Under the pieces are notes generated by a model. That model was not told where the DNA came from. It was given only the letters and a program-made list of their open reading frames with translations, and did no database searches. A stretch of 64,000 nucleotides of DNA from an uncultured Bacilli bacterium (GTDB lineage: Bacteria; Bacillota_I; Bacilli_A; RF39; UBA660): NCBI GenBank assembly GCA_910587325.1, contig CAJUKB010000004.1, forward strand, positions 16,988-80,987. Direction: 5' to 3'. Of the stretch, positions 9,970 to 56,666 are shown piece by piece (position 1 is the stretch's first letter; every line of letters starts with the position of its first letter). The translations under genes and the position numbers were made by a program.

Positions 9970-10000
9970 ATTATACCCCCCCCCCGAAAACGTTTGTCAA
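9970..10000 (-). promoter_or_regulatory. Consensus promoter TTGACA-N19-TATAAT with a G10 homopolymer in the spacer (candidate phase-variable promoter)
   Basis: Minus strand: TTGACA at 9995-10000, G10 at 9976-9985 within a 19-nt spacer, TATAAT at 9970-9975, RBS AAGGAAGGG before the ATG at 9926. Confidence 0.55.
9976..9985. repeat. C10/G10 homopolymeric tract
   Basis: Ten consecutive C on the plus strand in DNA of about 25-28 % GC. Confidence 0.9.
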
Positions 10001-12655: not shown

Positions 12656-12686
12656 ATTATAACCCCCCCCCCAATGAAAAAGACAA
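12656..12686 (-). promoter_or_regulatory. Promoter-like TTGTCT-N19-TATAAT with a G10 tract in the spacer
   Basis: Minus strand: TTGTCT at 12681-12686, G10 at 12663-12672, TATAAT at 12656-12661, RBS AAAGGAG before the ATG at 12634. Confidence 0.5.
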
Positions 12687-31226: not shown

Positions 31227-31461
31227 TTTTTCACCTTTCTAGTTTCTTTATTATTTAGTTTGCGAAAAATTATAATCAATATTACTAGTTAATTGTATCA
31301 TGTAAACCTTTAGATGTAAATTCATGCAAAATAAAAAGCAGGATAAAATCATCCGAAAAGGCAAAAATGCCAAGAAGTGAAAATTAGTAGAAAATTAGTA
31401 GAAAATTAGTATATGGATTGTCAACATTTTTTTAGACAATTTTTATAGGGACATTTGCTGT

Positions 31462-32227
31462 CTGTAAACAACGGGAGTTTTATAATCTAAGGAACCATGA
31501 ATGCGAATGTTATTATACCAGTTTACATAATCAAATAACTCGCACTCTAACTCCTCAAATGAGGAAAATCTTCGGTTATAAGCAAACTCCGTTTTTATGA
31601 TTTTATATGTCGCTTCTGCTACCGCATTGTCATAGGGACAGCCTTTTTTAGATAGGGATCTCTTTATTCCAAATGTTTCTATTAATTCCTCTATGATTTT
31701 ATTTTTAAATTCATTTCCTCTGTCTGTATGAAATATATTTATCTTTCTTAAATCATAAGAAATTTTACTGAATGCTTTATAACTAGTTTTGCATCCTTAT
31801 GAATTCCTGCTGCATACCCTATAATTTCTCGATTCCATAAATCGAGTATTAAACAGATGTAATTCCATTTTCCTGCTACATTTACATACGTTAAATCACT
31901 TACGACTACATCTAATTGTTTTTCTCTTTCAAATTCTCGATTTAAGATATTTTCTCCTTCTTCCTCATTGCAAGATGCTTTATGTACTTTAAATTGTTTA
32001 ACTGTATAGTTACTTACTAAACCATTTAAGTCCATAATTTTTCTTATTCTTCTTAGACTTACTTGGTAGCCTAATTCTTGCAATTTTACTTTTATTTTTC
32101 TTGAGCCATAATTATTTCTACTTTCTTTAAATATCTTTATGATTAATTCTTCTAGTTCTTTATCTTCACGTTTGTTTTTTCTTTCGTAGTAGACAAGAGC
32201 TCTGGACACTTTTAGAGTTTTACACAT
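31462..32227 (-). pseudogene. IS3-family transposase OrfB (DDE integrase core), frameshifted
   Basis: The 159-aa ORF 31748-32227 carries the rve-domain N-terminal half. The remaining C-terminus (...HGSLDYKTPVVYRQQMSL*) lies in another frame between 31462 and about 31750. Confidence 0.55.
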
Positions 32228-32268
32228 TGCACTGATACTATACTTGTCTCGATTGGCTTTTATTATTT

Positions 32269-32559
32269 TTATTTTCGTCCCATTATCAGCGCTGCTTGCT
32301 TTAAAATATCATTCTCCATTCGCAACCGTTTATTTTCTTTCTCTAGTTCTATCAAACGATTCTCTTCTTCTGTTCGATTATCTTTTGCTTTAAAGGATCC
32401 TGTGGTGTTAAATTGTTTTATCCAATTGTTTAATGCTGATGGCGTTAATTCATATTCTCTTATTAATTCACATCGTTTTTTTCCGTTATTGTATAAGTTT
32501 ACTACTTGTTGTTTAAATTCTTCTGTATATTGTCTTTTTTCTCTTCGGTTACTTTCCAT
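32269..32559 (-). CDS. IS3-family transposase OrfA (HTH)
   Basis: 96 aa. MESNRREKRQYTEEFKQQVVNLY...LKQAALIMGRK is typical of IS3 OrfA. Confidence 0.75.
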   Translation of the reverse strand: MESNRREKRQYTEEFKQQVVNLYNNGKKRCELIREYELTPSALNNWIKQFNTTGSFKAKDNRTEEENRLIELEKENKRLRMENDILKQAALIMGRK

Positions 32560-32683
32560 TTTCTTTTCCTTCTTTCTTACTTCTCATATTATAATCTGTC
32601 CTTTTCTTTTTTGTCTAATTTATTGTAACCAATCCAATATGAAAATGTACTAATTTTTATTATGATAAAAGTGGTGATAAAAA

Positions 32684-33930
32684 GTGGCAAAAATTGCAAA
32701 AACATTGAAAGAATTAAAAGAAAATTTAGAAATAGAAGATTACATAGAAGAAACAGAAATAGAAAATTATGATTTGCATATTCTAACAAATGAGATAAAT
32801 GAAGAAGCATCTTATTTAATGGATAAACGAGAAGAAGAATATATAAAACACTCTTTAGAAGATATAGTAATCATAGTAATATTAGGATTATTTGCAAATA
32901 GTAACACCTTTGTAGAAATTGAAATATTTGCAAAAAAACATTATGAATGGCTTAGGAATTATCTAGAACTTTCTTATGGTTTGCCTTCTATTTGTACAAT
33001 TAAAAGAGTAATAGCAGCATTGAATCCGAAAGAATTAGAGGAAATGTGTAATCATGTTTTTTTAAACTTTGTAAAAGTAACTCAAAAACCAATATATGTA
33101 AAAAATGGATTAAAATTGATGGATATAAATAGTTTAGATGGAAAAACGGCAAATAATTCTAAAAGAAACACAATAGAAGGATATATAAAACCAACAAATG
33201 CGATGAGTGCCTATTCTGTTGTTAATGAAAAATGTTTAGCAACAGAATTTATAAGTGAAAAGACAAATGAAATACCAACATGTCCAAAATTATTAAAAAG
33301 GTTAAATATCAAAGATGTAGCAATCACATTTGATGCTTTAAACACCCAAAAAGATACAATAGATTACATAGTAAAAAATGAGGGATATTATGTTGCACCC
33401 ATAAAAGATAATCAAAGCATACTAAAGGAAGATTTGGAACTATATTTTCAAGATTTATATTTAATAAAAGTTGGAAATGCCAAAGTGTATGAAGAAATAG
33501 AAAAATCTCATAATCAAGCAGAAAAAAGAACATATATATTTACGAATGATATAGATTGGATATACTAAAAAGAAAAATGGTCAGATTTAAAAAGTATAGG
33601 TGTACTTATAAAAGAGATAAATGGAGAAGAAAAAGAAAGAAAATATTTCATAAGCAATATAAAGGCAAATCATATAGAAATATTATCTAAAATAATTAGA
33701 AATGAATGGAGCATAGAGAATAAGTTACATTGGTATTTAGACATGGTATTTTTAGAAGATAAGAATAAATGTTATATTGAGAATAGTCAAAAAAACTTAA
33801 ATATAATGAGAAAATTTTGTCTTGGAATATTAAAAATAGTGAAATCTCATTACAATATGAGCATGAATTCTATTCGTTTTCAATTGAGTATTGATTTTGA
33901 AAATGAAATAGAGCAACTTCTTAAATTGCT
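32684..33930 (+). pseudogene. ISAs1-family (H-repeat-associated) transposase with an internal TAA stop
   Basis: N-terminal DDE_Tnp_1_assoc-like region (DIVIIVILGLFANSNTFVEIEIFAKKHYEWLRNYLELSYGLPSICTIKRVIAAL). A single in-frame TAA at 33566-33568 (DWIY*KEKWSDLKSIG) is followed by the conserved C-terminus (WSIENKLHWYLDMVFLEDK...). Confidence 0.65.
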
Positions 33931-39688: not shown

Positions 39689-40468
39689 TTAAACCTCCTC
39701 TGCAAACCCCTTCGATAACTTTTTAAATATGAAATACCCGATGACACAAAATAGAAGACAACCTCCTATTAAAACCGCTAGCGATATTATATCAGGCATT
39801 TGTTTATAAAAGAAGATATCTCGATAAGAATTTATAATCGTCCCCATCGGATTTAATTTAATTAAGGTAGCAATTGGTGTTCCTGCAAACATTTCAGGAG
39901 AATATAAAATGGGAGTTGCGTAAAATAGCATATTTACAACAAAGTTGATAATGTACTCTAAGTCTCTTATATAAATATCAATGGCACTTGTAATAAAAAC
40001 AATTCCTAAAGAAAATAAAAATTGAGCAAGAACAACTACAGGAAGTAATAGAATGTAAGGGCTAAAACCTATACCAGAGCAAATAAGAAAAATACCAATA
40101 ATTAAACAAGAAATTAAGAAATTAATCATTCCACTTGTTACTACCGAAATAGGTAGAATTTCTCTTGGAAAGTATACTTTTTTTATAATCCCCGCATTTC
40201 CTAAAACGGTTGTTGTTCCAAGGGCAATCGAATTTGTAAACCATGTCCAGGGAAGAATTCCAATAATAATAAATGTTACATAGTGTGGCTCTGTACTTTT
40301 TAAAATAAAGGGGAAAACAATTGCATAGACAAGTGTCATTAAAAGTGGGTTTACAAAAGACCATAAAATTCCTAAAAAGGAACCCTTGTATTTGCCACGA
40401 ATTTCTTTTTTCACGTTTGTTTTTAAAAGTTCTCGATAGTTATATAATTCTTTAATCATCTTAACCAC
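39689..40468 (-). CDS. ABC-2 type polysaccharide/teichoic-acid export permease (Wzm/TagG-like)
   Basis: 259 aa, 6 TM helices, ABC-2 signature region. Overlaps the upstream ATPase gene. Confidence 0.7.
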   Translation of the reverse strand: MVKMIKELYNYRELLKTNVKKEIRGKYKGSFLGILWSFVNPLLMTLVYAIVFPFILKSTEPHYVTFIIIGILPWTWFTNSIALGTTTVLGNAGIIKKVYFPREILPISVVTSGMINFLISCLIIGIFLICSGIGFSPYILLLPVVVLAQFLFSLGIVFITSAIDIYIRDLEYIINFVVNMLFYATPILYSPEMFAGTPIATLIKLNPMGTIINSYRDIFFYKQMPDIISLAVLIGGCLLFCVIGYFIFKKLSKGFAEEV

Positions 40469-41189
40469 ACACCTTCATGTATTCGTCAATCACGTTTTCA
40501 TTTCCATCCATTTTGATTTTTCCTTCATGAATCCATACAAAACGCGTACATAATTTTTTTATAGACTCTAAACTATGGCTTACGATTACAATTGTTTTGT
40601 TACTATTTTTTAGTTCTTCTAATTTAGAAAAACACTTTTCTTGAAAATGAGCATCTCCTACGGCTAGGATTTCGTCAATTAAAAGTATTTCTGCATCTAC
40701 ATTAATGGCAACAGAAAACGCAAGTCGCATGTACATTCCTGATGAATAAGTACGAATAGGACTATCAATAAATTCTTTAAGTTCTGAAAATTCGATAATA
40801 TCTTCTAAACGTTTGTCTATTTCTTGTTTCGTTAAGCCAAATATAGCAGCATTAAAGTAAATATTTTCACGACCTGTAAAATCTGGATGAAACCCTGCCC
40901 CTAATTCTAGTAAAGAGGTTAACTTTCCTTCTGTTGTTATTTTTCCTCTTGTAGGATAAATAATTTTCGTCATTAGTTTTAAAAGAGTTGATTTTCCACT
41001 ACCATTGACGCCAATTAAGGCTACTGTTTCTCCTTTTTTGATATCTAAAGAAACATTTTCTAATACCGTATGAACATCCGCTTTTTTCTTATTCCAAAAT
41101 ACAAGTCTTTCTTTTAATGTGCTTGGTTTGTCATAGTAAAGTTTAAAGTTTTTTGTTACATCTTTTACAACAATTGCATTTTTAGGCAT
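40461..41189 (-). CDS. ABC transporter ATP-binding protein (Wzt/TagH-like)
   Basis: 242 aa. Walker A GVNGSGKST, ABC signature LSSGMYMRLA, Walker B LLIDE. Confidence 0.8.
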   Translation of the reverse strand: MPKNAIVVKDVTKNFKLYYDKPSTLKERLVFWNKKKADVHTVLENVSLDIKKGETVALIGVNGSGKSTLLKLMTKIIYPTRGKITTEGKLTSLLELGAGFHPDFTGRENIYFNAAIFGLTKQEIDKRLEDIIEFSELKEFIDSPIRTYSSGMYMRLAFSVAINVDAEILLIDEILAVGDAHFQEKCFSKLEELKNSNKTIVIVSHSLESIKKLCTRFVWIHEGKIKMDGNENVIDEYMKVCG

Positions 41190-41238: not shown

Positions 41239-42393
41239 TTACCAAATTTTTTTGTAACTCTCTACTACTAGTTTCCATGTATATTCTTTTTTTATTCTAT
41301 CTTTGGCAAGATTCTCATATTTTTTGATTGTTTTGTCATCAAATTTTTCTACTTTTTCAATCTGTCTTTTTAAGTCTCCTTTTTGTTTGCTGAAATAGAA
41401 AGAAGACATCATACCAACTTCTACATTGTAAATTGCATTAAATAAAATATTTAATTTTGTGCTTGCTAGTGCTTCTAAAAGAGAAGGATTTGTTCCTCCT
41501 GCACTATGTCCATGAATATAAGCATAAGCATTTCGTCTTATGTAAAGAAGCGTTGCATGATCGTAAACGGAACCAATAAATTTAATTCTTGCATCACTCG
41601 AAAAGCACGTTTTCTTTTCTAGTTCTTTATAAAACTTATTTTCTTCTACATTGGATACAATGACTAAATCCCTTTTAGTATCGCTACTCATGAACTCTTT
41701 TATCATAAGTTCATAGTTATTTTCTGGTACAAATCGCCCGACAATTAGATAATAGTTATTTTCACTTATTTGATATTTTTTATACAATTCTTTAACAATA
41801 TTTGTTTTACACTCTTTTTCATTTAAATAGGCCCCGTAAGGAATAAAATAAGATGGTTTATGAAACTTTTTATATTTTGTATCTATGTATTCTTTAATCG
41901 CTTTTGAATCACTTATTATTCCATCACTGTGCTTAACCATACAGTATTCACTTATTTTAAAACACTTTTTTATCCACCATGCCCATTTATCACGCATCCA
42001 TTCAAGTCCATCAGGATTTAAATAAATTTTGATTCCTTTCTTTTTTAATGGACGTACTAAAAAAGGATAAAACGGCCCCATACGACAACCCAGTACGTAA
42101 ACCATTGAATTTTCTAAATTATTTTTTTTAATGTATTTTTTCATTCGTTTTAATGCTACTATTGCATAGATAAACATGGTTACAAATCCAACTTTAGGGG
42201 AATAGACTTGCAAACAAGAAACCTGATCTTTTTCGATTATTTTTTTATTCTCTTTTTTATTGTGAGTCAGTTCTGGAACATGAAACTTGGTATTTTTATC
42301 ACAATAGTTTTCTATTAAATTGGTTACAAAGGTTTCCCAACCCCCGTAATTAGATTTGTATCCACGTGCTCCAATTATTATAATATTTTTCAT
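41239..42393 (-). CDS. GT4 glycosyltransferase with a DUF1972-type N-terminal domain
   Basis: IIIIGARGYKSNYGGWETFV N-terminus and a C-terminal GT4 region. I take the start at the Met preceded by RBS AAGAGGAAA (42393). The ORF track's upstream Met is at 42417. Confidence 0.6.
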   Translation of the reverse strand: MKNIIIIGARGYKSNYGGWETFVTNLIENYCDKNTKFHVPELTHNKKENKKIIEKDQVSCLQVYSPKVGFVTMFIYAIVALKRMKKYIKKNNLENSMVYVLGCRMGPFYPFLVRPLKKKGIKIYLNPDGLEWMRDKWAWWIKKCFKISEYCMVKHSDGIISDSKAIKEYIDTKYKKFHKPSYFIPYGAYLNEKECKTNIVKELYKKYQISENNYYLIVGRFVPENNYELMIKEFMSSDTKRDLVIVSNVEENKFYKELEKKTCFSSDARIKFIGSVYDHATLLYIRRNAYAYIHGHSAGGTNPSLLEALASTKLNILFNAIYNVEVGMMSSFYFSKQKGDLKRQIEKVEKFDDKTIKKYENLAKDRIKKEYTWKLVVESYKKIW

Positions 42394-42404
42394 AGTTTTC
42401 CTCT

Positions 42405-43328
42405 TTAATAATTCCATTTTATTTTATTAAAGCAATTTATACCCCCCCCCCGTTTGAATTTGTTATAGAGATTACGAATTTTACTAATGTATGTCCAACT
42501 TTTGCTATTTAATATTTGTTTTAAAGAATCATGAGATTTAGTCAATTCATTATTTAATTTTTTTATTATTGTTTCTTGTTTTTGATTTTGCATTTTCATA
42601 TTATTGAAATCTTTTTCTAGTGTCGTTATTTTTTCATTTAGTTCCTTTATGATAACTTCTTTGCTTTTATTATGTTCGTGGATAAAAAAGTAATCGTTGT
42701 TATACCATAAAACATTTATGAATTGTACTTTTTTGTATTTGTGTTTCCAAAGGGAGTACATAAAGGAAAGTTGATCTCTTCTACTGTATCGTTTTACCAT
42801 ATTCCACCAACAATTTTGTACTTTTTTAATTTTGCTATTATTAGTTTTAAATGCAAAAAAATTATTAGCAGTAAGTCCATAATGTTCGGGAAAATTTTCT
42901 TTTTTTAAAAATGTCATTTCTTCCTCAATAATCTTTTTATCGTCTTTTTTCCAATCAATACATACTATTGCCTCTTCATAAATACAATCTCTATCGGAAT
43001 GGATAAGAGAAAAAAAGTCGTAATTTTTAAGGTCACATTCTTTTTTAATAAACTCACTAACTGGTTTTCTTAATTCTATATTAGCGTCCATATAAATGGC
43101 CAAATCATAATTTTTAAAGATTTCTTCACAACCAAGAATTTTGATTTTTCTTTCTAATCTAATGAAATCTAAGAGTTCTGGATTATCTAAGGACATAATT
43201 TTCCAAGTTTTGCTTTTAATGTTTGGGTTATTTGTAAAACAATAATAATCTATTTCTTTATCTATATACTTTATTTCTTTTAAGGTATCATAATCTCCAG
43301 TTATTGCTGTATATACCATAGTTTTCAT
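42405..43328 (-). CDS. Putative glycosyltransferase-like protein (DUF616/TOD1-MUCI70-like) with a coiled-coil C-terminus
   Basis: 307 aa. N-terminal AITGDYD motif. The C-terminal Gly-Gly-Gly is encoded by the G10 tract. Confidence 0.4.
   Translation of the reverse strand: MKTMVYTAITGDYDTLKEIKYIDKEIDYYCFTNNPNIKSKTWKIMSLDNPELLDFIRLERKIKILGCEEIFKNYDLAIYMDANIELRKPVSEFIKKECDLKNYDFFSLIHSDRDCIYEEAIVCIDWKKDDKKIIEEEMTFLKKENFPEHYGLTANNFFAFKTNNSKIKKVQNCWWNMVKRYSRRDQLSFMYSLWKHKYKKVQFINVLWYNNDYFFIHEHNKSKEVIIKELNEKITTLEKDFNNMKMQNQKQETIIKKLNNELTKSHDSLKQILNSKSWTYISKIRNLYNKFKRGGGINCFNKIKWNY
42442..42451. repeat. C10/G10 homopolymeric tract inside the 3' end of CDS 42405-43328, followed on the minus strand by TATAAA
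   Basis: Encodes RGGGI 16 codons before the stop. On the minus strand G10-TATAAA lies 42-60 nt upstream of the ATG of 41239-42393. Confidence 0.9.
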
Positions 43329-43332
43329 ATTT

Positions 43333-44181
43333 TCACCTCTTAATCCATTTTTCTATTTCTAAACCAAGTAAATAAATATAGTAAAAAATTCTTAATATTA
43401 ATAGTTTGAAGATATTCATTTTATTTATATATTTTTCATAATAATATTGACTTTTTTTTAAAATTTTAAACTTTTCTATTCGATTAATATTTTTATCCAC
43501 ACAAGCACTTAAAGCGTGAATAACTGTCACATTGTTATCAACATAAGTCGCATATCCTTTTTCTTTTAATTTTTTTGCCATAATAATTTCTTCGTAATAT
43601 AAAAAGGTATTTTCATCAAAATAGCCGATATCTTCTAAAACCGTTTTCTTTATAATGAAGAAACATCCCTTTACTACATCTACTTTGGTTAAATCTTTTT
43701 TATATTCTTCATTTTTGTACGTTAATAAAGACAGTTCAAAACGTCTAAAAAATGGAATATTGGCTACAAGTTCTGATAGAAATGTGGGTAATTTCCAACC
43801 ACGAGAAACACCAGTTGGTTCTTTTATATTGGGAGCAATGACTGCTACGTTGTTTTTTTCTAAATTTTCAACTAAATTCTTTATTTCTTTTTCTGTTACT
43901 ATGATATCTGGATTGGAAATAATAATATTATCTACATCATGATTTTTTATTAAATATTGAATTCCTACATTATTTCCAGAAGCGTATCCTTTATTTTCTT
44001 TTGCTTCCACTATTTTAATTTTGTGATTTTCAAATTGTTTTAATTCTTTTAGTGAATTATCAGTGCTTTTATTATCTACTATAATAATAACATCTAGTAT
44101 TTTATAATTTTTGATTTCTTCTAACATTAATTTTGTATTTTCACTATCATTATAATTTAGTATAACTATTCCATTTTTCAT
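43333..44181 (-). CDS. GT2 glycosyltransferase
   Basis: 282 aa. GIVILNYNDSENT...VDNKSTDNS...NPD motifs. RBS AGAGGGTAA. Confidence 0.7.
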   Translation of the reverse strand: MKNGIVILNYNDSENTKLMLEEIKNYKILDVIIIVDNKSTDNSLKELKQFENHKIKIVEAKENKGYASGNNVGIQYLIKNHDVDNIIISNPDIIVTEKEIKNLVENLEKNNVAVIAPNIKEPTGVSRGWKLPTFLSELVANIPFFRRFELSLLTYKNEEYKKDLTKVDVVKGCFFIIKKTVLEDIGYFDENTFLYYEEIIMAKKLKEKGYATYVDNNVTVIHALSACVDKNINRIEKFKILKKSQYYYEKYINKMNIFKLLILRIFYYIYLLGLEIEKWIKR

Positions 44182-44234
44182 ATTTTGTTACCCTCTTTAT
44201 TATTTTATCAAAAGAAGAAAAATCTGTCTATTTG

Positions 44235-44334: not shown

Positions 44335-44888
44335 TGGCTCTAGATAATTTAGTGGGAATCTAAAATTAAAGATTTCTAAGTAAATAAAAGGGAAAATAGG
44401 TATTTTTTAGATTAATTTCAAAACACCTGTTTTTTTATGGAGAATACGCTTTATTTTTTTGCTTTTCTATCTTTTTTAGTTATTCCACTTATTTTTCCAT
44501 TCAATATGTACATTACCCTTAGTCTAAAAAATCAAAATTTTGATATCCAACTCCAACTCTTTTGATTACTTTTATTTTGTTGTTTAATCCTTCTGCAAAT
44601 CCATTACTAAGTCTTTCATCTATAAATGAATTTACTATTTAAGGTAACCAATTTTCTATTGTTTTATTTGCTTCTATCATTTCCTCCATTTCATAAATTT
44701 TTACTATTTCTGCCCATTCTCTTCATTCTATTTCTACATACTCGTAATTTGTTGTATATGATACATTAAAAAAAAGAGATAACTTTATTCGTTATCTCCT
44801 CACCTAATTTTCTAGTTATCATACAAAAAGTCCCCACTAAAATTTCTTGATGCTGATTTTTTTATCCCCACTAAATTATCTAGAGCCA
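44335..44888. mobile_element. ISL3-family derived non-autonomous (MITE-like) element of about 550 bp
   Basis: 22-bp perfect terminal inverted repeats TGGCTCTAGATAATTTAGTGGG at 44335-44356 and reverse-complemented at 44867-44888. GGCTCT is the typical ISL3 terminus. Flanking 8-bp near-identical direct repeats AAAAAATA/AAAACATA. An internal minus-strand remnant SNGFAEGLNNKIKVIKRVGVGYQNFDF matches an ISL3 transposase C-terminus. Confidence 0.55.
44767..44798 (-). terminator. Rho-independent terminator (GAGATAAC-loop-GTTATCTC plus T8), probably terminating the lic operon
   Basis: 8-bp GC-containing stem with a 7-nt loop, followed by 8 T on the minus strand, downstream of the BCCT gene stop (44988) and inside the ISL3 remnant. 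Confidence 0.55.
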
Positions 44889-44987: not shown

Positions 44988-46517
44988 TTATTCTTTTTTG
45001 TTGTTTTTAGTAGGTTCTTCTAAATACCGTTTAGCGTCTTTAATAAAACTAATCACAATCATAATTATCACTATTCCTATTGGAAAAGCCGCGACTATGC
45101 TCACAGATTGTAAATTATTCATAGAACTTTGTGAAAATACCAAAGCGATTGGTAATAAAATTAATAAGATGCACCATATTAATTGCATCATTCTATGCGG
45201 TTTTTCATCTTTAGCAAGTTTGTGATAACTATAGCATGATGCCGTATAAGCAATGGAATCGAAAGAAGTTGCGTAAAATGCAATCATTGTAATTAATAAT
45301 AATATTAAAATAAACGGAAAACATGGAATGGTTTTAATTATAGAAATAATAATATTATAAATATCTCCACCATTTTGATACATTGCCACAAAATCAAATT
45401 GCCCACTCATTTGAAGGCCTAAAGAATGATTTCCTAATATTATAAAACTAATAATTGTAGACCCTACACCAAAGATATATCCCCCAATAATCGTTTGTTT
45501 AACAGTTCTTCCTTTTGATATATTACCAATAAAAAAGGGAGCAGCAACACACCAAACCATCCAATAAGCCCAATAATAAATTGTCCAATTTTGTGGAAAA
45601 CTTGTTTCTCTTAAAGGATCTGTTGTCGTCGATAATCCTATAAAATTTTCTATCATTCGTCCTAATGAAGAGAAACCATTTTCAATAATAAATCGCCCTT
45701 GTCCTCCAAAAAATAAAACAAATAATAAAATACCAAAAAATAAATAAATACAAATTTTTGCAAGTAAACTCATTCCTTTAAATCCATGTAAAAGCGTATA
45801 CGTATATACAATACAAGTTATTAAAAGAATAATTATGGTAATTACTGTCCTGCTTATGGTTATATGAAATACTTCTCCAATAATTGCAGCCATTAAAGGA
45901 GTAGCAACGCTAAATGTTGTAGCAGTTCCAGCAAGTAATGCAAATACTGCTAGCAAATCTACTATTCTTCCTGGTAATTTATCTGTAAATTTTCCAAGTA
46001 AAGGCCTACACGCTTCTGAATATTTTTGTTTTTCTCTTTTTCTTACATGTAACATAAAGCCAAAAGCAATTGCAAGAACTAAATAAAAACTCCACGGAAT
46101 AAAACTCCAATGAAATATTGGAAATACGCTTGCCCAATCTTCCATATTTCCTAAATGCGCAATATGACTTTCTCCTGCATACATAATCCATTCCGAAAAT
46201 GAATAGAATAAGATGTCTGCCGCAAGTCCACACGTAAACATCATAGCCCCCCAAGTAAAGAAGGAATATTTTGGTTTTTCATTTTTTTTGCCTAATACAA
46301 TATTTCCATACTTCGAAAACGCAATAATTAAGGACAAAATAAATATCCCTAAACCCATTATCAAATAATATACACCAAAAGTATCCCCAAAAATAAATCT
46401 AATTTTACTTAAAACTAGATTAGATTCTGTAGGTAGAAAAATAAATAGGACGCATAGAGCAATAATTAAAACAAGTGGCATTAAAGTGATTAGCCAATCA
46501 ATTTTCTTTGTTTTCAT
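44988..46517 (-). CDS. BCCT-family (betaine/carnitine/choline) transporter, probable choline importer
   Basis: BCCT signature WTIYYWAYWMVWCVAAPFFIGNISKGRT, about 12 TM helices. Start taken at the internal Met MKTKKIDWL. The ORF track starts at 46565. Confidence 0.7.
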   Translation of the reverse strand: MKTKKIDWLITLMPLVLIIALCVLFIFLPTESNLVLSKIRFIFGDTFGVYYLIMGLGIFILSLIIAFSKYGNIVLGKKNEKPKYSFFTWGAMMFTCGLAADILFYSFSEWIMYAGESHIAHLGNMEDWASVFPIFHWSFIPWSFYLVLAIAFGFMLHVRKREKQKYSEACRPLLGKFTDKLPGRIVDLLAVFALLAGTATTFSVATPLMAAIIGEVFHITISRTVITIIILLITCIVYTYTLLHGFKGMSLLAKICIYLFFGILLFVLFFGGQGRFIIENGFSSLGRMIENFIGLSTTTDPLRETSFPQNWTIYYWAYWMVWCVAAPFFIGNISKGRTVKQTIIGGYIFGVGSTIISFIILGNHSLGLQMSGQFDFVAMYQNGGDIYNIIISIIKTIPCFPFILILLLITMIAFYATSFDSIAYTASCYSYHKLAKDEKPHRMMQLIWCILLILLPIALVFSQSSMNNLQSVSIVAAFPIGIVIIMIVISFIKDAKRYLEEPTKNNKKE

Positions 46518-47244
46518 TTTTTTCGCCTGCTTTCTTAAAATTAGCGTAACTGTTATCAATTGCAATTAATTCTTGATAATTATCTATTTCTACTATATCT
46601 TCCTTTTCTATTTCATAAACGTGTAAATCAAATTCTTCAGGATAACAAAACATTGCAATATTATCCCAATAAATGGTAGTATTGTTTTTATTTATGAACT
46701 CTTCTTCCACATATTTTTTTAATTTTTTTCCATCTTCTTTTGTCCATCTTGAAATGCTCCACAAACGGTATCCATCTTTTCCACCCTCAATACTACAATT
46801 TGTAATTTTTCCACAGTTATCAGTTTGCAAAAACCACTCATTTGTATATTCTTTGCACCACGAACAACTATATCCAGATTTTTCAAAGTATGGATTTAAT
46901 ATGCTTGGATTTTTAATTATTAAGTCGGCGTCTGTAATAATAATTTCTTCTAAAAATTCTCTAGCAACATACAAAGAAGAAATATTGTTGGTTTCTTCAT
47001 AATATTTATTTTCAATTAATTTTATATTCGGATAGTCTTCTAACAAAATATTAAATTTATCTTTTAGGTATCCAACAACAATATATATTTCTTGTATTCC
47101 ATTTTGGTATAAACCCTTTATAATAGTATCAATCATTCTTACGCCATTTACTCTTATTAATGGTTTTGGCGTTTCAATTGTAACAGGGTTTAATCTGCTT
47201 CCCTTGCCCGCTGCTAAAATAAGGGCTCTTTTTATTTTATTCAT
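46498..47244 (-). CDS. licC: CTP:phosphocholine cytidylyltransferase (LicC-like nucleotidyltransferase)
   Basis: 248 aa. ALILAAGKGSRL nucleotidyltransferase motif, in the same operon as a choline kinase and LicD. Confidence 0.65.
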   Translation of the reverse strand: MNKIKRALILAAGKGSRLNPVTIETPKPLIRVNGVRMIDTIIKGLYQNGIQEIYIVVGYLKDKFNILLEDYPNIKLIENKYYEETNNISSLYVAREFLEEIIITDADLIIKNPSILNPYFEKSGYSCSWCKEYTNEWFLQTDNCGKITNCSIEGGKDGYRLWSISRWTKEDGKKLKKYVEEEFINKNNTTIYWDNIAMFCYPEEFDLHVYEIEKEDIVEIDNYQELIAIDNSYANFKKAGEKNENKEN

Positions 47245-49024
47245 TTATTTCTTCCTCCAATTCTTTGGCAACTATTTTATAAAAATCTTTTGCATACCTA
47301 TATTGTTTTATAGAGTATTCTCCAAATTCTATACCTAAGTTTCTTTTGAATTCACACCAATTACTCCAGAGCAAACCGCAAGCCGAAATATAGGCATAGA
47401 TTTTTAGACGAGTTATTTTTTTACATTTGTTTTTGAAATAGATAGAAATTAAATTATCAATTTCTTCCTTATCATATAATGAATATATACAAAACATAGC
47501 AATATCAACATGTGGATCTTGCATACCTGCATATTCCCAGTCAATTAATTTTATTTCATTTTTTGTAATCAAAAAATTATCTGGTACTGCATCAATATGA
47601 GTCAAACTTCTACTTTCTACATTTTTTTCAATAAAAGGTTTTAATTTTCTTACATTTTTTTTAGTTGTTTCATAATCTTCATAAACAGAGGCGTTTCCAT
47701 TCCATAGCAACTCAAAATAATCGATTTGTTTAAAAATATCAAATTTATGTTCCACTTTTAATTTTAAATTATGAAAATCTCTTAGTTTTTTCATACATTT
47801 TTTTATGTCCTCTTGATTATGTGGATTGCATACTTTTGCTCCTTCTATAAATTTTGTAATTTTATAACCATTCTCAGGATTTATATAATAAATGTCATCA
47901 CAAATGTTTTGATTTTTTATTTTTAAGTAAGTTGCTGCTTCTTGTTTTCTATTTATCAGTTGGTCTGTTCCTTCTCCTGGAATACGCATAATGTATTTTT
48001 GATTTTGGCATTCAAATATAAAAGATTTATTGGTCATACCTTTTTTCAATATTTGTATATTTACAATTTCTTTCGTATCTACTTTAAAGACTTCTTTTAT
48101 AATTTCTATTGCATCATTATTTAAACTATTAGAATTAAAATCAAAATCTCTTAATTCTTCATAGGTATTTATTTCTATATAATCTTCATTATTAACAAGA
48201 TTCGGTTTAAAATATTTAGTATTCTCTTGTAATAAAATATCTTCCCAATATGAATTCTTGTATTTTTTCAAATTGTTACATTCTTCTAGGGTTTTTACAA
48301 AAAGTTTTTTATCTTTTTCGCTAATATAGGCAATTCCTATCATTTTATTTCCATATTCTTTTGTATTCACTTTTGTTAATTCAAATTTTTTGTTAATTCT
48401 TAGAATACTATCCTCATCTTTCTCATTATTTAGCATATACCAAGAATACAATTCAACAGTATGAAAGGGATTTTCCTTACAATAAATGTCACAAGGTATA
48501 ATGTAAGAGTTTCCTATATTCTTTTTTGCTAAGTTAAGGGAATACAAATTGTTTCTTTCACTATATTTTGGATTTATTATTAACTCAACATTATATTTGT
48601 CTATTAAGTATTCGTATTTTTCTTTCATAAAGCCTACTATAATTTGGATATTCGTAATGCCAACTTCTTGTAGTTGTTTTATAATACGTTCAATTAGAAC
48701 CTCATTTTTTACTTCTAAAAGTCCTTTTGGTATTTCTGTATTTATAGGAACCATTCGCATTCCGTATCCCGCTGCCAGAATAATGGCATTTCTAGTTTTT
48801 GAAGAATGGATTTCTTTTATCGCTTTTTCTGTTAATTCTTTATTATTTGTTAAATAGCCATATTCTATTAACTTTTTTAAACTTACATTTATTACCCCCA
48901 AAGATGTTTTGGTTATTTTTGATAGTTCTCTTTGAGTTAACTCCCTTTTATTATTAAAAATCGTTATTATAATATCATACATAATTTTGTTCATGAAAAT
49001 CAAATACTCTTTTCTTATGAACAT
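47237..49024 (-). CDS. Fusion protein: HTH, LicC-like nucleotidyltransferase and LicA-like choline kinase
   Basis: 595 aa. N-terminal HTH (RELTQRELSKITKTS), AIILAAGYGMRM nucleotidyltransferase motif, and a C-terminal choline/ethanolamine kinase motif LIDWEYAGMQDPHVDIAMF. Confidence 0.65.
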   Translation of the reverse strand: MFIRKEYLIFMNKIMYDIIITIFNNKRELTQRELSKITKTSLGVINVSLKKLIEYGYLTNNKELTEKAIKEIHSSKTRNAIILAAGYGMRMVPINTEIPKGLLEVKNEVLIERIIKQLQEVGITNIQIIVGFMKEKYEYLIDKYNVELIINPKYSERNNLYSLNLAKKNIGNSYIIPCDIYCKENPFHTVELYSWYMLNNEKDEDSILRINKKFELTKVNTKEYGNKMIGIAYISEKDKKLFVKTLEECNNLKKYKNSYWEDILLQENTKYFKPNLVNNEDYIEINTYEELRDFDFNSNSLNNDAIEIIKEVFKVDTKEIVNIQILKKGMTNKSFIFECQNQKYIMRIPGEGTDQLINRKQEAATYLKIKNQNICDDIYYINPENGYKITKFIEGAKVCNPHNQEDIKKCMKKLRDFHNLKLKVEHKFDIFKQIDYFELLWNGNASVYEDYETTKKNVRKLKPFIEKNVESRSLTHIDAVPDNFLITKNEIKLIDWEYAGMQDPHVDIAMFCIYSLYDKEEIDNLISIYFKNKCKKITRLKIYAYISACGLLWSNWCEFKRNLGIEFGEYSIKQYRYAKDFYKIVAKELEEEINE

Positions 49025-49119
49025 AATATCATATTATCTTTTAAATGGGAAGTAAAAAGCATATTTTTTTCTCTATATAAAATATTTTCCTTATGCTATA
49101 ATTTTAGTAGGTGATAGTA

Positions 49120-49929
49120 ATGAATAAAGCACAAAAACATCAATTAGAAATGGCTTTGGAAGTAGACCGTATCTGTAAGAAATACAATTTAAAGTATAAC
49201 ATTGATGGTGGTACTCTTCTTGGTGCTATTCGTCATAAAGGTTTTATTCCTTGGGATGATGATTTAGATATTGATATGCCAAGACATGATTATGAAAAGT
49301 TTTGTGAAGTAGCACAAAAAGAATTAGGAGACAAATATTTTTTACAAACTTGGGATACAGAACCTAATTATGCTATGACTTTTGCAAAAATAAGAGAAAA
49401 TAATACTATTTATTTAGAAAACGTTGCAAAAAATGTGGATGTTCATCAAGGAATATGGATAGATATATTTCCTCATGATGTGATTACAGATAATGTATTT
49501 TTACAAAAAATATTGGTAAAAAAGGCCGTGCTTTATCGTTTGATGTTGCAAATAAAAAAAGGATATATTATAGAAACACCTTCGTTTAGCAAAAGAGTTA
49601 TTTTAGCCTTCTTAAAGTTTCTTGCTATCTTCACTTCCGCAAAATCTTTAAAGAAAAAGTTACAAAAAATGCAATTGCGTTATCAAAATACGAAAACAAA
49701 CAGTCTAGTAGATTATTCTAGTGTGCTTTTTAATAAAATGATTTACGATAAAAAGGTAATGAATGAATATGCTCCTGTTTCTTTTGAAGGAAAAACACTA
49801 ATGGGGCTTAAAGATTATGATACTTATCTTACCTATCTTTATGGTGATTATATGACGCCTCCTCCAGAGGGACAAAGAGAAAATCGGCATGGTATAATTC
49901 AAATTGACTTTAATGCAAAGCAAAAGTAA
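49120..49929 (+). CDS. licD: LicD-family phosphocholine transferase
   Basis: DGGTLLGAIRHKGFIPWDDDLDIDM and IDIFP motifs. Start taken at the ATG with RBS AGGTGA. The ORF track starts at the GTG at 49111. Confidence 0.75.
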   Translation: MNKAQKHQLEMALEVDRICKKYNLKYNIDGGTLLGAIRHKGFIPWDDDLDIDMPRHDYEKFCEVAQKELGDKYFLQTWDTEPNYAMTFAKIRENNTIYLENVAKNVDVHQGIWIDIFPHDVITDNVFLQKILVKKAVLYRLMLQIKKGYIIETPSFSKRVILAFLKFLAIFTSAKSLKKKLQKMQLRYQNTKTNSLVDYSSVLFNKMIYDKKVMNEYAPVSFEGKTLMGLKDYDTYLTYLYGDYMTPPPEGQRENRHGIIQIDFNAKQK

Positions 49930-53484: not shown

Positions 53485-54897
53485 TCACTTTTTTCTTCTT
53501 TTTTCATCTTCCCAAAAATCAAAATTATCAAATTTATCTAATTTTTCTTTTAAGGAAGTGTCTTGGGTTTCTTTTGTTTCTTTCTCTGTATTTTGTTCTA
53601 TTTTTATTTCTTGCACAAGTTCTTCTTTTTCTAGTTTTTTAACATCCGCTTTTGAATTTCTATTTATTTTTTTCTTATGTTTGTTCTTTTTCTTTAATAG
53701 ACATAAAATCAATAAGAAGGCAAATACTAAACCAACTCCAAAAGCAATACAAATATACATATAAGTATTTAAATCTTTAGTTAAACTTTCCACTTCCTCT
53801 TGATTCCATACTTGGAAAGTTCCTTCTTCTGTATCATAACTATAATAATCGTATTTTCCTGTTTCAATGTTCATACCATAGCAAATGACAAAACGACTAT
53901 TTTCACTTAAACGATATATAGGAACTTCTACTTCGTTAATGCTTATTGTTCCATTAGTATAATTTTTAAGTTCGTTAGGAAAATCCGTCAAGTATAGAGT
54001 CAAAGCATTCGCATTTAATTCGTTATAAATAGTGTAAGTATTATTCTCTTCATTGTAGATAGCTAGTATCACTTTGCCTGTTGTATCCTTAAGTCCCACT
54101 AAAGTAAATCCAGTTGTTTCACTATAAAAAGCTGGAATGGTAAATCCATTTATTTCTATTGTTTTTTCTTCATACATATTGAGCTGTGGTAAACTTTTGC
54201 CATTTTTAATAATCGTGTAAGATTTTTCTCCTATCTTGACTTCAATTGGATTCGTATCTTCTACGTTCACATTGATAACATATGTTTTCGTAGCTCCACT
54301 TTCTGCTGTTACCACTACATTAAAGGTATTGATACCTTCTGATACTTCTACTTCTCCTGTTCCTGAAACACTTGCATGTGATTCATTTGCTTTGGCGGCG
54401 ATTTTAACAGAATTGACAGTAGATGGAACTGTTACAGAGTATTCTAAGGTATCTTTGTTGAATGATGGAGTAAGTTCATATCCTTCAATAGATAAAGAGG
54501 CTAGATTTGCATCCGTTGCTTTTTCTCTTACAGGAACCACTGTTACTCTTTTAGAAGCAGATACGTTTGTGGTTGCTCCATCTTTACTAGTAATATCTCC
54601 AGTAGCAGTAAAGGAAATCATTCCTAAACTCGTAGCTTTACATGTCACAGTTAGTGTTTTAGTTGTATTATTTCCGTTACTTGTAGAATCTGCAAAGCTT
54701 TGGGTACACCCACTTGTGGAACCGGCAGAAACAATTTTTACATTCCAAGCTGCCGTTCCTTTTAATGTTAATGTTGCTTTTACAGTACTTCCTAATTCTA
54801 CGCTTGTTGGAGCGCTTAAAGAATAAGTTGCTGCTGCATGCACCATATAGGGGCACAAACTAAACAAACATAACAAACGAATTAACTTTCTTTTCAT
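53485..54897 (-). CDS. Secreted, membrane-anchored surface protein with a cadherin-like beta-sandwich domain
   Basis: 470 aa. Signal peptide, an ANLASLSIEGYELTPSFNKDTLEYSVTVPSTVNSVKIAAKA region typical of the clostridial cadherin-like domain, a C-terminal TM helix and a charged K/E-rich tail. Confidence 0.5.
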   Translation of the reverse strand: MKRKLIRLLCLFSLCPYMVHAAATYSLSAPTSVELGSTVKATLTLKGTAAWNVKIVSAGSTSGCTQSFADSTSNGNNTTKTLTVTCKATSLGMISFTATGDITSKDGATTNVSASKRVTVVPVREKATDANLASLSIEGYELTPSFNKDTLEYSVTVPSTVNSVKIAAKANESHASVSGTGEVEVSEGINTFNVVVTAESGATKTYVINVNVEDTNPIEVKIGEKSYTIIKNGKSLPQLNMYEEKTIEINGFTIPAFYSETTGFTLVGLKDTTGKVILAIYNEENNTYTIYNELNANALTLYLTDFPNELKNYTNGTISINEVEVPIYRLSENSRFVICYGMNIETGKYDYYSYDTEEGTFQVWNQEEVESLTKDLNTYMYICIAFGVGLVFAFLLILCLLKKKNKHKKKINRNSKADVKKLEKEELVQEIKIEQNTEKETKETQDTSLKEKLDKFDNFDFWEDEKRRKK

Positions 54898-54911
54898 TTC
54901 ATCCCTCTATT

Positions 54912-56666
54912 CTATCTTTGTGAAATATTTTGTGTTCCTAAAAGATATTGTCTAAGTCTCAATAAATCTGCGGAATTTATATTACTATTTACAAGTTTTG
55001 CAGCTTCTAAATAAACACCGCTTAATTTCGATGATCCAATCAAGTGTTGACGCATTTTAAGTAAATCTGCGGAGTTGATTGTTCCATCTCCGTTTAAATC
55101 GCCATAAACAACAGCTGTATAGGTTTCGCCGTTATAAGTGAATGTGGTACCTGTTCCAATTTTGTCGGCTTTACTAGTAATTGTTACTTGATTTTGTAAT
55201 TTAGATTTCAAAGTAGAAATACTTTCTCCAACAGTAAATCCTTTCACCAAACCAGAACCTACTTTTAGTCCAACAGAAGCTAGCTTCGTTGTAAGTGTTA
55301 CAGGTATACTCGGACTACTTCCATTACTACTATTTGAACAAATCGTACAAGCACTACCACTTGCAAATACTAATCCCGCTTTATAAGGAGATTCTGCTCC
55401 ACTTGATGCACCTAAATTGTAAAAATTATAAAGTCCGCTATAATTGATTCCCTTATATTCAAAAGCATTTCCTGTTGTAGCTGCACCTCCGCCCATTCCT
55501 GATTCTTGTAAAGCTAAAGCAGCAAGATAAACGGCACTAACTCCTGATGTTTTTCCCGCTTCTATAAAGATAGAAGCATAACTTTGATTGTCAAGAATCG
55601 AAATTCCATCCATAAAACTTCCCTTTATAATACTCCCTATCATTGCTTCTGTATGGCTAGAGTTGTAGCGTAAACTTTCAAATTGAAAGATATATTCTTC
55701 GTTTAAAAAATTTCTTGGGTCCATGTAGTAAGCAAGTGTTTCTCTATTTGGAACGTACCATCCTTTATCATTTCCTGCTTGCACATAACTTCCGTTTTCT
55801 ATTAGATAATATGCTGTACTTCCATTAATAGCAGATACCCCATTTTCATAAGTTAATGCAGTATCAAAATTTTCATTTGTCTGTAATGCTTCAAAAGTCC
55901 AACTTGGATGTTTCGTATGTAAAGCACGTAAATAAGGCTTATAAGAATCAGGAAATCCTGCTTGGCTTAATTTTGTTTCAAATGCCGCATCGGTAATGGT
56001 ATCTTGTCTTGGAACCGTTGTTTTATTTCCTCCTGGTCGATTATAAACATTTGCCATATTATTATAAACCGGAATGGTAAATGTAAATGGTAAATCTAAA
56101 AAATTACTATTTGCATAGGCTTTATACGTTTTAGAAGATTCATTAGAAGGTGCCGCAATATTGGTTTGGTATTGGTGTGAATACATACTATAGTTGCTGT
56201 TTGGATTGACATTGAATTTTTTTAAATAAATCGTATATTGTCCTTGCGCAATGTAAGAACCATTAATATAAATAGCTCCCCCTATAATGGCTTTTTTAGG
56301 TGAAGTCCAAGGCCTTAAGTAAACATCGCTACCATCAATGACAACTCCTGCTGCACATACATACCCGGTGTACTCTCCATAAGTAGCTTTATAAAACCCA
56401 GTAGAACAACCAGATGTTGGAGCAGTTTTGGTAAGACCATGAAGAAATACAATATCATCAGTACTTAAATTCACTAAAATTTGATTATTTTTAGTATCTG
56501 TCGTTGGTTTTACTCTGATTTTTTGCGTATCGTTTTTAATCTTTCCTGGTATTAATTCTTCTGCTTCTACCTGAATAGGAAAAGAAAAGATAGAAGAAAA
56601 AGTAATACTAAAAATAAGGGTTATTGAAAATACTTTTGCAAAAAACTTTTTTACCTTTTTAGGCAT
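54912..56666 (-). CDS. Secreted GH73-like N-acetylglucosaminidase (putative peptidoglycan hydrolase) with C-terminal dockerin type I repeats
   Basis: 584 aa. Signal peptide, a YLAALALQESGMGGG motif resembling the GH73 catalytic region, and C-terminal repeats GDLNGDGTINSADLLKMRQHLIG / INSADLLRLRQYLLG. Confidence 0.5.
   Translation of the reverse strand: MPKKVKKFFAKVFSITLIFSITFSSIFSFPIQVEAEELIPGKIKNDTQKIRVKPTTDTKNNQILVNLSTDDIVFLHGLTKTAPTSGCSTGFYKATYGEYTGYVCAAGVVIDGSDVYLRPWTSPKKAIIGGAIYINGSYIAQGQYTIYLKKFNVNPNSNYSMYSHQYQTNIAAPSNESSKTYKAYANSNFLDLPFTFTIPVYNNMANVYNRPGGNKTTVPRQDTITDAAFETKLSQAGFPDSYKPYLRALHTKHPSWTFEALQTNENFDTALTYENGVSAINGSTAYYLIENGSYVQAGNDKGWYVPNRETLAYYMDPRNFLNEEYIFQFESLRYNSSHTEAMIGSIIKGSFMDGISILDNQSYASIFIEAGKTSGVSAVYLAALALQESGMGGGAATTGNAFEYKGINYSGLYNFYNLGASSGAESPYKAGLVFASGSACTICSNSSNGSSPSIPVTLTTKLASVGLKVGSGLVKGFTVGESISTLKSKLQNQVTITSKADKIGTGTTFTYNGETYTAVVYGDLNGDGTINSADLLKMRQHLIGSSKLSGVYLEAAKLVNSNINSADLLRLRQYLLGTQNISQR

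Follow-up and report, generated by a model that had tools for sequence, protein, structure and literature searches.

Genes and features of the locus

The 64-kb stretch of DNA analyzed here (the window; 27% GC) is for the most part one long cell-envelope region of an uncultured member of the Bacilli, and the minus strand codes for essentially all genes near the G10 tract at 42442-42451. Its envelope genes specify an MraY-like initiating transferase, an LCP-PASTA ligase, a choline module (LicD, choline-kinase, cytidylyltransferase and BCCT), many GT2 and GT4 enzymes, GT-C-like membrane proteins (DUF2142, DUF6020, DUF6056 and YfhO-like), a flippase, acyltransferases, an ABC-2 exporter, a sortase and an NlpC/P60 hydrolase. 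As its sortase, LCP and PASTA genes show, the host bacterium is walled; its relatives come from mouse (MGBC) and rabbit (Lapin) gut MAGs. An Rfam gathering scan of the whole window matched no family, and no tRNA genes were found in it. The features that concern us are the following:

42442-42451, minus strand: G10 homopolymer, a probable hypermutable repeat, read from the sequence, with G9, G10 and G11 alleles on SNP-free backgrounds
42436-42441, minus strand: -10-like hexamer TATAAA, directly 3' of G10 (alternative TAAATT at 42434-42439)
42461-42466, minus strand: -35-like hexamer ATAACA (4/6 match), 19 nt from TATAAA at G10
42396-42405, minus strand: Shine-Dalgarno sequence AAGAGGAAAA of the GT4 gene, overlapping the TAA stop at 42405-42407
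42405-43328, minus strand: DUF616/TOD1_MUCI70-like glycosyltransferase, 307 aa; its last 15 codons hold the tract and span the putative promoter and 5'UTR
41239-42393, minus strand: DUF1972 + Glycos_transf_1 (GT4) glycosyltransferase, 384 aa (Pfam), the first gene downstream of the tract
40461-41189, minus strand: ABC transporter ATPase (Pfam), in the transcription unit of the GT4 gene
39689-40468, minus strand: ABC-2 permease (Pfam), in the same transcription unit
43333-44181, minus strand: GT2 gene, first of the unit, upstream of the DUF616 gene
44202-44230, minus strand: candidate main operon promoter TAGACA-17-TGaTAAAAT, upstream of the GT2 gene at 43333-44181
9970-10000, minus strand: sister site 1, intergenic; TTGACA, 9 nt, G10 (9976-9985), TATAAT
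8415-9926, minus strand: target of site 1, a 503-aa secreted protein with an NAQTG / hydrophobic / KKK sorting signal
7434-8309: sortase gene, after that of the 503-aa secreted protein
12656-12686, minus strand: sister site 2, intergenic; TTGTCT, 8 nt, G10 (12663-12672), T, TATAAT
10976-12634, minus strand: target of site 2, a YfhO-like GT-C membrane protein with 8 predicted TM segments
10020-10979: GT2 gene overlapping the YfhO-like GT-C gene, downstream of it

The unit that contains the tract at 42442-42451 runs in the order GT2, DUF616/TOD1-like GT, DUF1972-GT4, ABC ATPase, ABC-2 permease, GT2, double-GT2 and acyltransferase, and the gaps separating its first four genes (GT2, DUF616, GT4 and ABC ATPase) are 4, 11 and 49 nt. 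Among related contigs, the order GT4, ABC ATPase, ABC-2 permease is conserved, and the exact 384-aa GT4 product is called in 23 public contigs. In the case of sister site 2, the YfhO-like GT-C and GT2 pair is presumably a lipid-linked sugar decoration system of Gram-positive wall polymers. The genes behind the three tracts, namely a surface protein with its sortase, a GT-C/GT2 pair and a GT4/ABC segment, are typical contingency targets.

On the plus strand, 42442-42451 reads C10; on the minus strand, the coding strand of all neighboring genes, it reads G10. In the latter direction the site is ...CTCT ATAACA AATTCAAAC GGGGGGGGGG TATAAA TTGCTTTAATAAAATAAAATGGAATTAT TAA AGAGGAAAACT ATG..., in agreement with the original prediction of a minus-strand G10 with TATAAA (42436-42441) right after it. 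This hexamer matches the -10 consensus at 5/6 positions and is without the final T. The final T of the -10 hexamer is highly conserved, and the A at its second position is critical. The same prediction placed a ribosome-binding site (RBS) and a start codon about 40 nt past TATAAA, and these we read as the Shine-Dalgarno sequence at 42396-42405, which is strong and properly spaced, and the ATG of the DUF1972-GT4 gene at 42393, 42 nt beyond the hexamer. The TAA at 42405-42407 is the stop of the upstream ORF in the G10 frame. Folding of the region from the tract to the ATG found no significant RNA structure (MFE -10.2 kcal/mol, z = +0.69 vs shuffles), and models invoking an attenuator, a riboswitch or occlusion of the RBS were therefore dropped. 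A G-quadruplex at 42442-42451 was likewise rejected because only a single G run is present.

Three G10 tracts with a shared geometry

G/C runs of at least 8 nt occur at three loci in the window (9976-9985, 12663-12672 and 42442-42451), against an expectation of 0.12, and those of at least 10 nt number three as against about 0.003 expected. The lengths of C runs extend from 1 to 6 and then jump to the three of exactly 10, with none of 7-9, and no A/T run in the window reaches 10 despite the GC content of 27%. Thus, the G10 tracts are much longer than base composition predicts, as is characteristic of SSR contingency loci, and the tract considered here is far beyond chance. The tract at 42442-42451 had been described as the fourth of its kind, with a context matching three other sites; this count was too high by one, as only two others exist.

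All three tracts share an arrangement on the coding strand. Site 1 has TTGACA-AACGTTTTC-G10-TATAAT with the ATG 43 nt further on, site 2 has TTGTCT-TTTTCATT-G10-T-TATAAT with the ATG 21 nt further on, and site 3, at 42442-42451, has ATAACA-AATTCAAAC-G10-TATAAA with the ATG 42 nt further on. Common to them are a -35-like hexamer, 19 nt that include the G10, a (T)TATAA(T/A) element and a distance of 21-43 nt to an ATG with its RBS, the latter being strong at sites 1 and 2. Of the positions after a G, 0.56% have TATAA(A/T) at an offset of 0 or 1; the probability for the three tracts together is about 2e-7, and chance does not explain this geometry. A -35-like hexamer lies exactly 19 nt 5' of the -10 at 3/3 tracts; matches of at least 4/6 have a background of 5.3% of positions, and the perfect TTGACA of site 1 has a frequency of 2.3e-4. 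Site 1, as TTGACA-19-TATAAT, is fully a repeat placed between recognizable -35 and -10 hexamers, and from their sequences both sites 1 and 2 are plainly intergenic predicted promoters. By the same measure, site 3 offers ATAACA (4/6), 19 nt and TATAAA (5/6), with TCTAAA in the related species L048 and L016. A generic promoter scan of this AT-rich window was uninformative (61 hits vs 63 in shuffles).

We also considered whether a single mobile "promoter cassette" had been copied to the three places. Local alignments of the three tract regions against shuffles found no similarity upstream, and downstream only the RBS region matched. The flanks being non-homologous, the cassette was rejected; as they are not copies of one another, the design is convergent.

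Tract length varies on identical haplotypes

We extracted the tract from public contigs on which the encoded GT4 or DUF616 protein is exactly that of the window. At 42442-42451, most of these have G10, L009 has G9, and L002, L010, L054 and L056 have G11; the last allele thus recurs in at least four samples from different projects, and no G8 allele was seen among the public contigs compared. On one haplotype (A), the 3.2 kb around the tract show 0 SNPs among L001, L004 and L008 (G10) and L009 (G9), and L010 (G11) is SNP-free across the 1.8 kb that it covers. A second haplotype (B) is made up of the window and L003 (G10) and of L002, L054 and L056 (G11), with 0-2 SNPs. In the 90%-identity cluster of DUF616 proteins, 24 contigs have the 307-aa forms and 4 have that of 300 aa.

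The sister tracts behave in the same way. At tract 2, G9 (L046) and G10 (L041) occur with 0 mismatches in 2009 nt, and a run of at least G11 (L044) and G10 (L040) with 0 mismatches in 4215 nt; at tract 1, G10 is the majority allele and L039 has G12. Hence, G10 is the majority allele at 3/3 tracts, and at each of the three the repeat length varies among otherwise identical genomes, as is expected of SSR contingency loci. Indels in the repeat thus arise at a rate far above that of substitutions. Contigs also end at or next to the tracts: L045 extends exactly from 12666 to 9976, the end of L042 is at 9977, and L044 and L006 begin at 12672 and 42447, respectively. A de Bruijn assembly would show such a pile-up if tract lengths were mixed or if reads were poor at the tract. 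Because G9, G10 and G11 lie on SNP-free haplotypes and contig breaks fall at the tracts, the run at 42442-42451 is most likely a hypermutable SSR contingency repeat. The slippage foreseen in the original prediction is thereby borne out by alleles on identical haplotypes, and the length fixed across isolates that would have spoken against it is not what the public assemblies compared contain. A scan of JGI metagenomes for the tract with a variable number of Gs gave 0 hits.

These alleles could in principle be artefacts of sequencing or assembly, through homopolymer errors or the poly-G of two-color Illumina chemistry: G homopolymers are error-prone, several contigs break at tracts, and L016 has a contig end with C-rich junk at the tract position. 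However, more than 25 independent assemblies, which stem from several projects, contain the tract and both its flanks, as do NCBI MAGs, and the consensus alleles have clean, integer lengths between identical flanks, G11 among them in at least four samples of different projects. Since clean integer alleles recur across many independent projects, an artefact is excluded as the whole explanation, and we give it next to no credence.

The coding overlap and the C-terminus of the DUF616 protein

The ORF at 42405-43328 on the minus strand ends in ...KFKRGGGINCFNKIKWNY*, with the tract at codons 293-296 of 307, i.e. in the last 5% of the ORF. The tract had been placed 16 codons before the stop; it does lie within the last 15 codons, and the figure itself was approximate, the glycines being residues 294-296 of 307. 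After the tract, all three frames reach a stop within 2-14 codons, leaving tails of about 3-14 residues: G10 gives the 307-aa protein, G9 gives ...KRGGV* (296 aa) and G11 gives ...KRGGGYKLL* (300 aa). The 296-, 300- and 307-aa forms are all called genes in public assemblies (L009 has that of 296 aa), as anticipated by the earlier claim that a slip of one nucleotide in either direction alters the C-terminus, with KRGGV-stop at G9. The stop of the upstream ORF also moves relative to the GT4 ATG, from 11 nt at G10 to 42 nt at G9 and 30 nt at G11.

The conserved part of the DUF616 protein ends at R293, where the tract starts. Homologs with 50-56% identity end in ...NRFRKKKK, ...NSIFHK, ...HKLKNR and ...NSFKRKKR, at or within 5 residues of this position; those with handles P0013-P0016 stop 0-5 residues past the equivalent of R293. 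Therefore, the tract and the tail form an extension past the conserved C-terminus of the family; the Pfam domain extends over residues 39-202 only. Compared with the ortholog in L048, which is 82% identical, the tail shows the replacements I>L, C>Y, K>L and W>S along with one synonymous change, which is not what a constrained peptide would show, and judging from the alignment the tail looks dispensable. Because the tails of 3-14 residues are not conserved, the change of the C-terminus upon slippage is probably incidental. The comparison of C-terminal variants that had been proposed thus finds that the variant forms exist, whereas the segment in which they differ is unconserved and looks dispensable.

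With regard to the known classes of switches, the tract lies in the last fifth of an ORF and generates alternative C-termini while the protein is kept, as in C-terminal phase variation; the switched segment is not the functional and conserved one expected of that class, the family ending at the tract. Nor is this a repeat near the 5' end that causes early termination, as in translational ON/OFF switching.

The tract in related strains and species

In L048, the run is kept as C+G9, with the total length and the stop as in the window. Both L048 and L016 have TCTAAA at the position of TATAAA and thus are without the A at the second -10 position; the -10 would be retained in them only if TAAATT/TAAACT, 2 nt downstream, is the real -10. 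In L016, a contig ends at the tract position with C-rich junk exactly there. L047 (96% identity) has an interrupted tract, GGGGGAGGGG, along with TACAAA, a 5-nt insertion and yet another DUF616 tail, its DUF616 stop being 26 nt upstream of the GT4 start; this looks like a locked or decaying allele. As none of 11 more distant species has a G tract upstream of the GT4 gene, the tract at this position is confined to the window species and its closest sister.

Elsewhere in the group the DUF616 gene itself carries a tract close to its 5' end. Seventeen codons into the gene, the ortholog in L017 has G11, which is out of frame, and that in L049 and L050 has G10, which is in frame and yields the protein P0016 (...FGENPLGGGYDDL...). 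We interpret this 5' poly-G as a classical translational ON/OFF switch.

A putative promoter-spacer switch

We propose that the G10 tract is a hotspot of slipped-strand mispairing within a large region for cell-envelope glycans and surface proteins, and that, at the very 3' end of the DUF616 ORF, it would lie in the spacer of an internal promoter of the sigma-A type (ATAACA, 9 nt plus G10, TATAAA). A slip that adds or removes a G would then alter the spacing and phasing of the -35 and -10 elements and thereby retune, stochastically and heritably, transcription that begins about 35 nt before the DUF1972-GT4 gene and continues into the ABC-transporter genes. Such internal initiation would come on top of transcripts that read through from the operon promoter at about 44202-44230. 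That the DUF616 protein also changes in its last 3-14 residues would be a by-product, the ORF simply running through the promoter and the 5'UTR to the next stop. The output of the tract would thus be promoter strength, as in the promoter-spacer switches of porA and T. pallidum tp0126, and this is the best reading at hand, one to which we give about an even chance. It had been left open whether slippage acts on the C-terminus, on an internal promoter or on translational coupling; of these options, the internal promoter appears the best supported because the three tracts share their geometry and two of them are plainly intergenic.

From this geometry we infer promoter activity, its dependence on tract length and the length that corresponds to the ON state. 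As the canonical spacing of 17 nt would be reached with G8, the modal G10 may correspond to low activity or to OFF, as in the tpr and tp0126 promoters of T. pallidum. Being the majority allele at all three sites, it could equally well be ON. Against the promoter reading stand the hexamers themselves, ATAACA matching at 4/6 and TATAAA being without its final T, the 19-nt spacer at the modal G10, and the TCTAAA of L048 and L016. Furthermore, the GT4 gene is probably transcribed anyway by read-through, as it starts 11 nt after the upstream stop and a good candidate promoter exists at 44202-44230, so that the internal promoter may add little. A variant of the proposal takes G10, with its 19-nt spacer, as ON, on the grounds that a rigid, A-like poly(dG) spacer is effectively shorter; in it a single slip would retune the promoter, rewrite the C-terminus and move the stop, and one repeat would coordinate two steps of wall-glycan synthesis. 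We regard this bifunctional variant as distinctly unlikely.

The promoter-spacer switch has to be weighed against accounts in which the tract varies to other ends or to none. It could be hypermutable but functionally near-neutral, perhaps a relic of a formerly intergenic phase-variable promoter, because operon read-through would drive the GT4 gene and the DUF616 tail seems dispensable. The hexamers are weak and 19 nt apart, a candidate operon promoter lies upstream with a gap of only 11 nt to the GT4 gene, the sister species has TCTAAA, and L047, with its interrupted tract, TACAAA and 5-nt insertion, is a case in which the element decays and the locus stays. However, unselected G runs should soon become interrupted, and this one persists at unchanged total length in the 82%-identity ortholog of L048. 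It also has a geometry identical to that of two clearly intergenic promoter tracts, and at 27% GC a G10 is expected only about 0.003 times in the window. On balance, we consider near-neutrality a possible but rather unlikely account.

The position of the tract in the last 5% of the DUF616 ORF raises instead the possibility of genuine C-terminal phase variation, with the 307-, 300- and 296-aa forms differing in activity, partner binding or localization. All three forms are encoded in public assemblies, the concept has been published for the 3'-end tracts of Helicobacter canadensis (PMC2823697), and the DUF616 family is itself under 5' poly-G ON/OFF control in sister species (L017 G11 vs L049/L050 G10). 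What makes this reading improbable is that the conserved protein ends at R293 and P0013-P0016 stop 0-5 residues later, with the Pfam domain confined to residues 39-202; that the tail differs from that of L048 mostly by non-synonymous changes (I>L, C>Y, K>L, W>S); and that the locked strain L047 has yet another tail. Alternatively, slippage might reposition the stop and so tune re-initiation at the GT4 gene or access to its RBS through translational coupling. The stop does shift between 11 nt (G10), 42 nt (G9) and 30 nt (G11) before the GT4 ATG, the G10 stop falls inside the RBS region, and the majority allele here (G10) and that of L048 (C+G9) both use the stop beside the RBS. Yet the GT4 gene has its own strong and properly spaced Shine-Dalgarno sequence, no occluding RNA structure is predicted (z = +0.69 at an MFE of -10.2 kcal/mol), the locked strain L047 stops 26 nt upstream, and coupling leaves the G10-TATAAT design of the two intergenic sister tracts unexplained. 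Hence, we deem it very unlikely.

Significance and comparison with known systems

SSR phase variation of surface-glycan genes, homopolymers in promoter spacers and tracts at the 3' ends of genes have all been described, and the mechanism itself is not new. New here are the host, an uncultured gut lineage of the Bacilli, and the occurrence of a promoter-type tract within the tail of the preceding ORF; a literature search on the host lineage found nothing. Accordingly, this bacterium, with relatives among mouse and rabbit gut MAGs, probably has poly-G contingency loci like those of Campylobacter, Neisseria and Treponema. Through these tracts it would diversify its surface by way of a sortase-anchored protein, a GT-C/GT2 glycan-decoration pair and a wall-polysaccharide GT/ABC module. 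In terms of gut ecology, this points to stochastic switching of surface glycans in commensal Firmicutes, with evasion of phages or of immunity as a possible outcome. Studies of surface switching in these organisms have so far focused on invertible promoters, not on repeats. For metagenomics, the implication is that such tracts fragment assemblies and that apparent frameshifts or "strain variants" may really be phase variants.

The closest parallels to the proposed switch are T. pallidum tp0126 and tprE/G/J/L and N. meningitidis porA, in which a poly-G of about 8-11 in or near the -35/-10 spacer varies in length within and between strains (PMC7864442). In such poly-G spacers, transcription is optimal at 17 nt, and at tprL 10 Gs are near-silent (PMC7864442). 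The G10 described here similarly lies between -35-like and -10-like hexamers, would give 17 nt at G8 and has alleles from G9 to G12 at the three tracts. It differs from tp0126 and porA in its host, a low-GC Gram-positive-type gut bacterium, in its target, a glycosyltransferase/ABC-transporter segment rather than an outer-membrane protein, and in that the predicted promoter, which would depend on length, sits inside the 3' end of the ORF before it. Among Gram-positive bacteria, a 1-nt indel in an intergenic homopolymer of S. pyogenes M28 is reported to alter Spy1336/R28-Spy1337 transcripts (PMC7098570). The shared elements are a Gram-positive organism and a homopolymer indel adjoining surface-protein genes, while the tract, the genes and the organism all differ.

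In Helicobacter canadensis, a slip in a 3'-end poly-G switches the C-terminus of a protein that is otherwise kept (Snyder et al. 2010; PMC2823697). The 296-, 300- and 307-aa forms encoded here likewise arise from a 3'-end poly-G. Unlike the H. canadensis case, the variable tail lies past the conserved end of its family and is itself unconserved, and the geometry around the tract is also that of a promoter for the next gene. In surface-glycan glycosyltransferases of the Campylobacter jejuni LOS/capsule loci and in Neisseria pgtA/lgt, in turn, poly-G tracts act as translational ON/OFF switches. These share with the present system a poly-G of 9-11, a low-GC genome and surface-glycan loci, and switches of this very type appear to be present in L017, L049 and L050; the tract at 42442-42451 differs from them in that it cannot turn its host ORF OFF, as only the last residues change. 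In L022, two tandem paralogous membrane-protein genes each have a G11 about 90 codons in, and both are out of frame.

Poly-G tracts upstream of genes

Both sister tracts, the two other G10 runs of the window, are intergenic and lie between promoter-like hexamers:

Window 9970-10000, minus strand: sister tract 1, TTGACA-N19(G10)-TATAAT
8415-9926: secreted protein of 503 aa whose cell-wall sorting signal is NAQTG, downstream of sister tract 1
7434-8309: sortase gene, also downstream of sister tract 1
Window 12656-12686, minus strand: sister tract 2, TTGTCT-N19 (including G10)-TATAAT
10976-12634: YfhO-like GT-C membrane protein, downstream of sister tract 2
10020-10979: GT2 gene overlapping the YfhO-like GT-C gene, downstream of sister tract 2

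By sequence, sister tract 1 lies within a textbook promoter, and a G12 allele of it occurs in a further public assembly (L039); the surface protein behind it is probably sortase-anchored and phase-variable. Sister tract 2 is found at G9, G10 and at least G11 on otherwise identical backgrounds, and the genes behind it probably constitute a phase-variable glycan-decoration pair.

In a strain with 96% protein identity (L047:3860-3940) the tract upstream of the DUF1972-GT4 gene is interrupted (GGGGGAGGGG), TACAAA replaces TATAAA and there is a 5-nt insertion, ATAAA; the allele of the putative switch carried here appears locked or in decay. In a 90%-identical species (L016:1-35) the contig end coincides with the tract position and consists of C-rich junk (CCCTCCCCCCACCCATCCCCCCCCCCGGCCC), which looks like a homopolymer-triggered assembly or sequencing artefact.

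Poly-G tracts within coding sequences of related species

In a sister species, the ortholog of the DUF616 glycosyltransferase carries its poly-G 17 codons into the gene. The run is G11 in a MAG (L017), placing the gene out of frame with a stop after GGGV, and G10 in two further assemblies (L049 and L050), where the frame is open and specifies a 283-aa protein (P0016). This poly-G is a classical translational ON/OFF switch. Another related contig (L022) encodes a polytopic membrane protein in two tandem copies, 95% identical, each with a G11 run about 90 codons past the ATG; in neither copy is the run in frame with the 391-aa ORF downstream.

L017:4262-4272, L049:2064-2073 and L050:1109-1118: poly-G in the DUF616 ortholog
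L022:608-618 and L022:2123-2133: G11 runs, one per gene copy

Organization of the glycan locus

The locus looks mosaic. Its glycan region is broken up by IS and transposase fragments:

Window 31748-33568: HTH_21 and DDE_Tnp_1_assoc ORFs
Window 44520-44700: short transposase-like remnant, flanked by the BCCT gene and the GT2 operon

Window 44988-49929 carries a complete choline-phosphate decoration module, comprising a BCCT transporter, a nucleotidyltransferase, a 595-aa HTH-nucleotidyltransferase-choline kinase fusion and a divergently oriented LicD. The fusion gene is split in some assemblies (116 + 463 aa in L012), as is the GT2 upstream of DUF616 in an NCBI MAG (146 + 82 aa, L013); these are further strain-level inactivations.

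Flanked by an initiating transferase and an LCP gene, two large secreted-looking proteins are encoded at window 53485-56666, one with a cadherin-like and the other with a dockerin-like domain. The window also holds two short tandem repeats, both perfect:

Window 58679-58712: ACAATAATA x3.8, 9-nt unit, in frame within the LCP-PASTA gene
Window 31379-31411: GAAAATTAGTA x3, intergenic, adjoining the IS fragments
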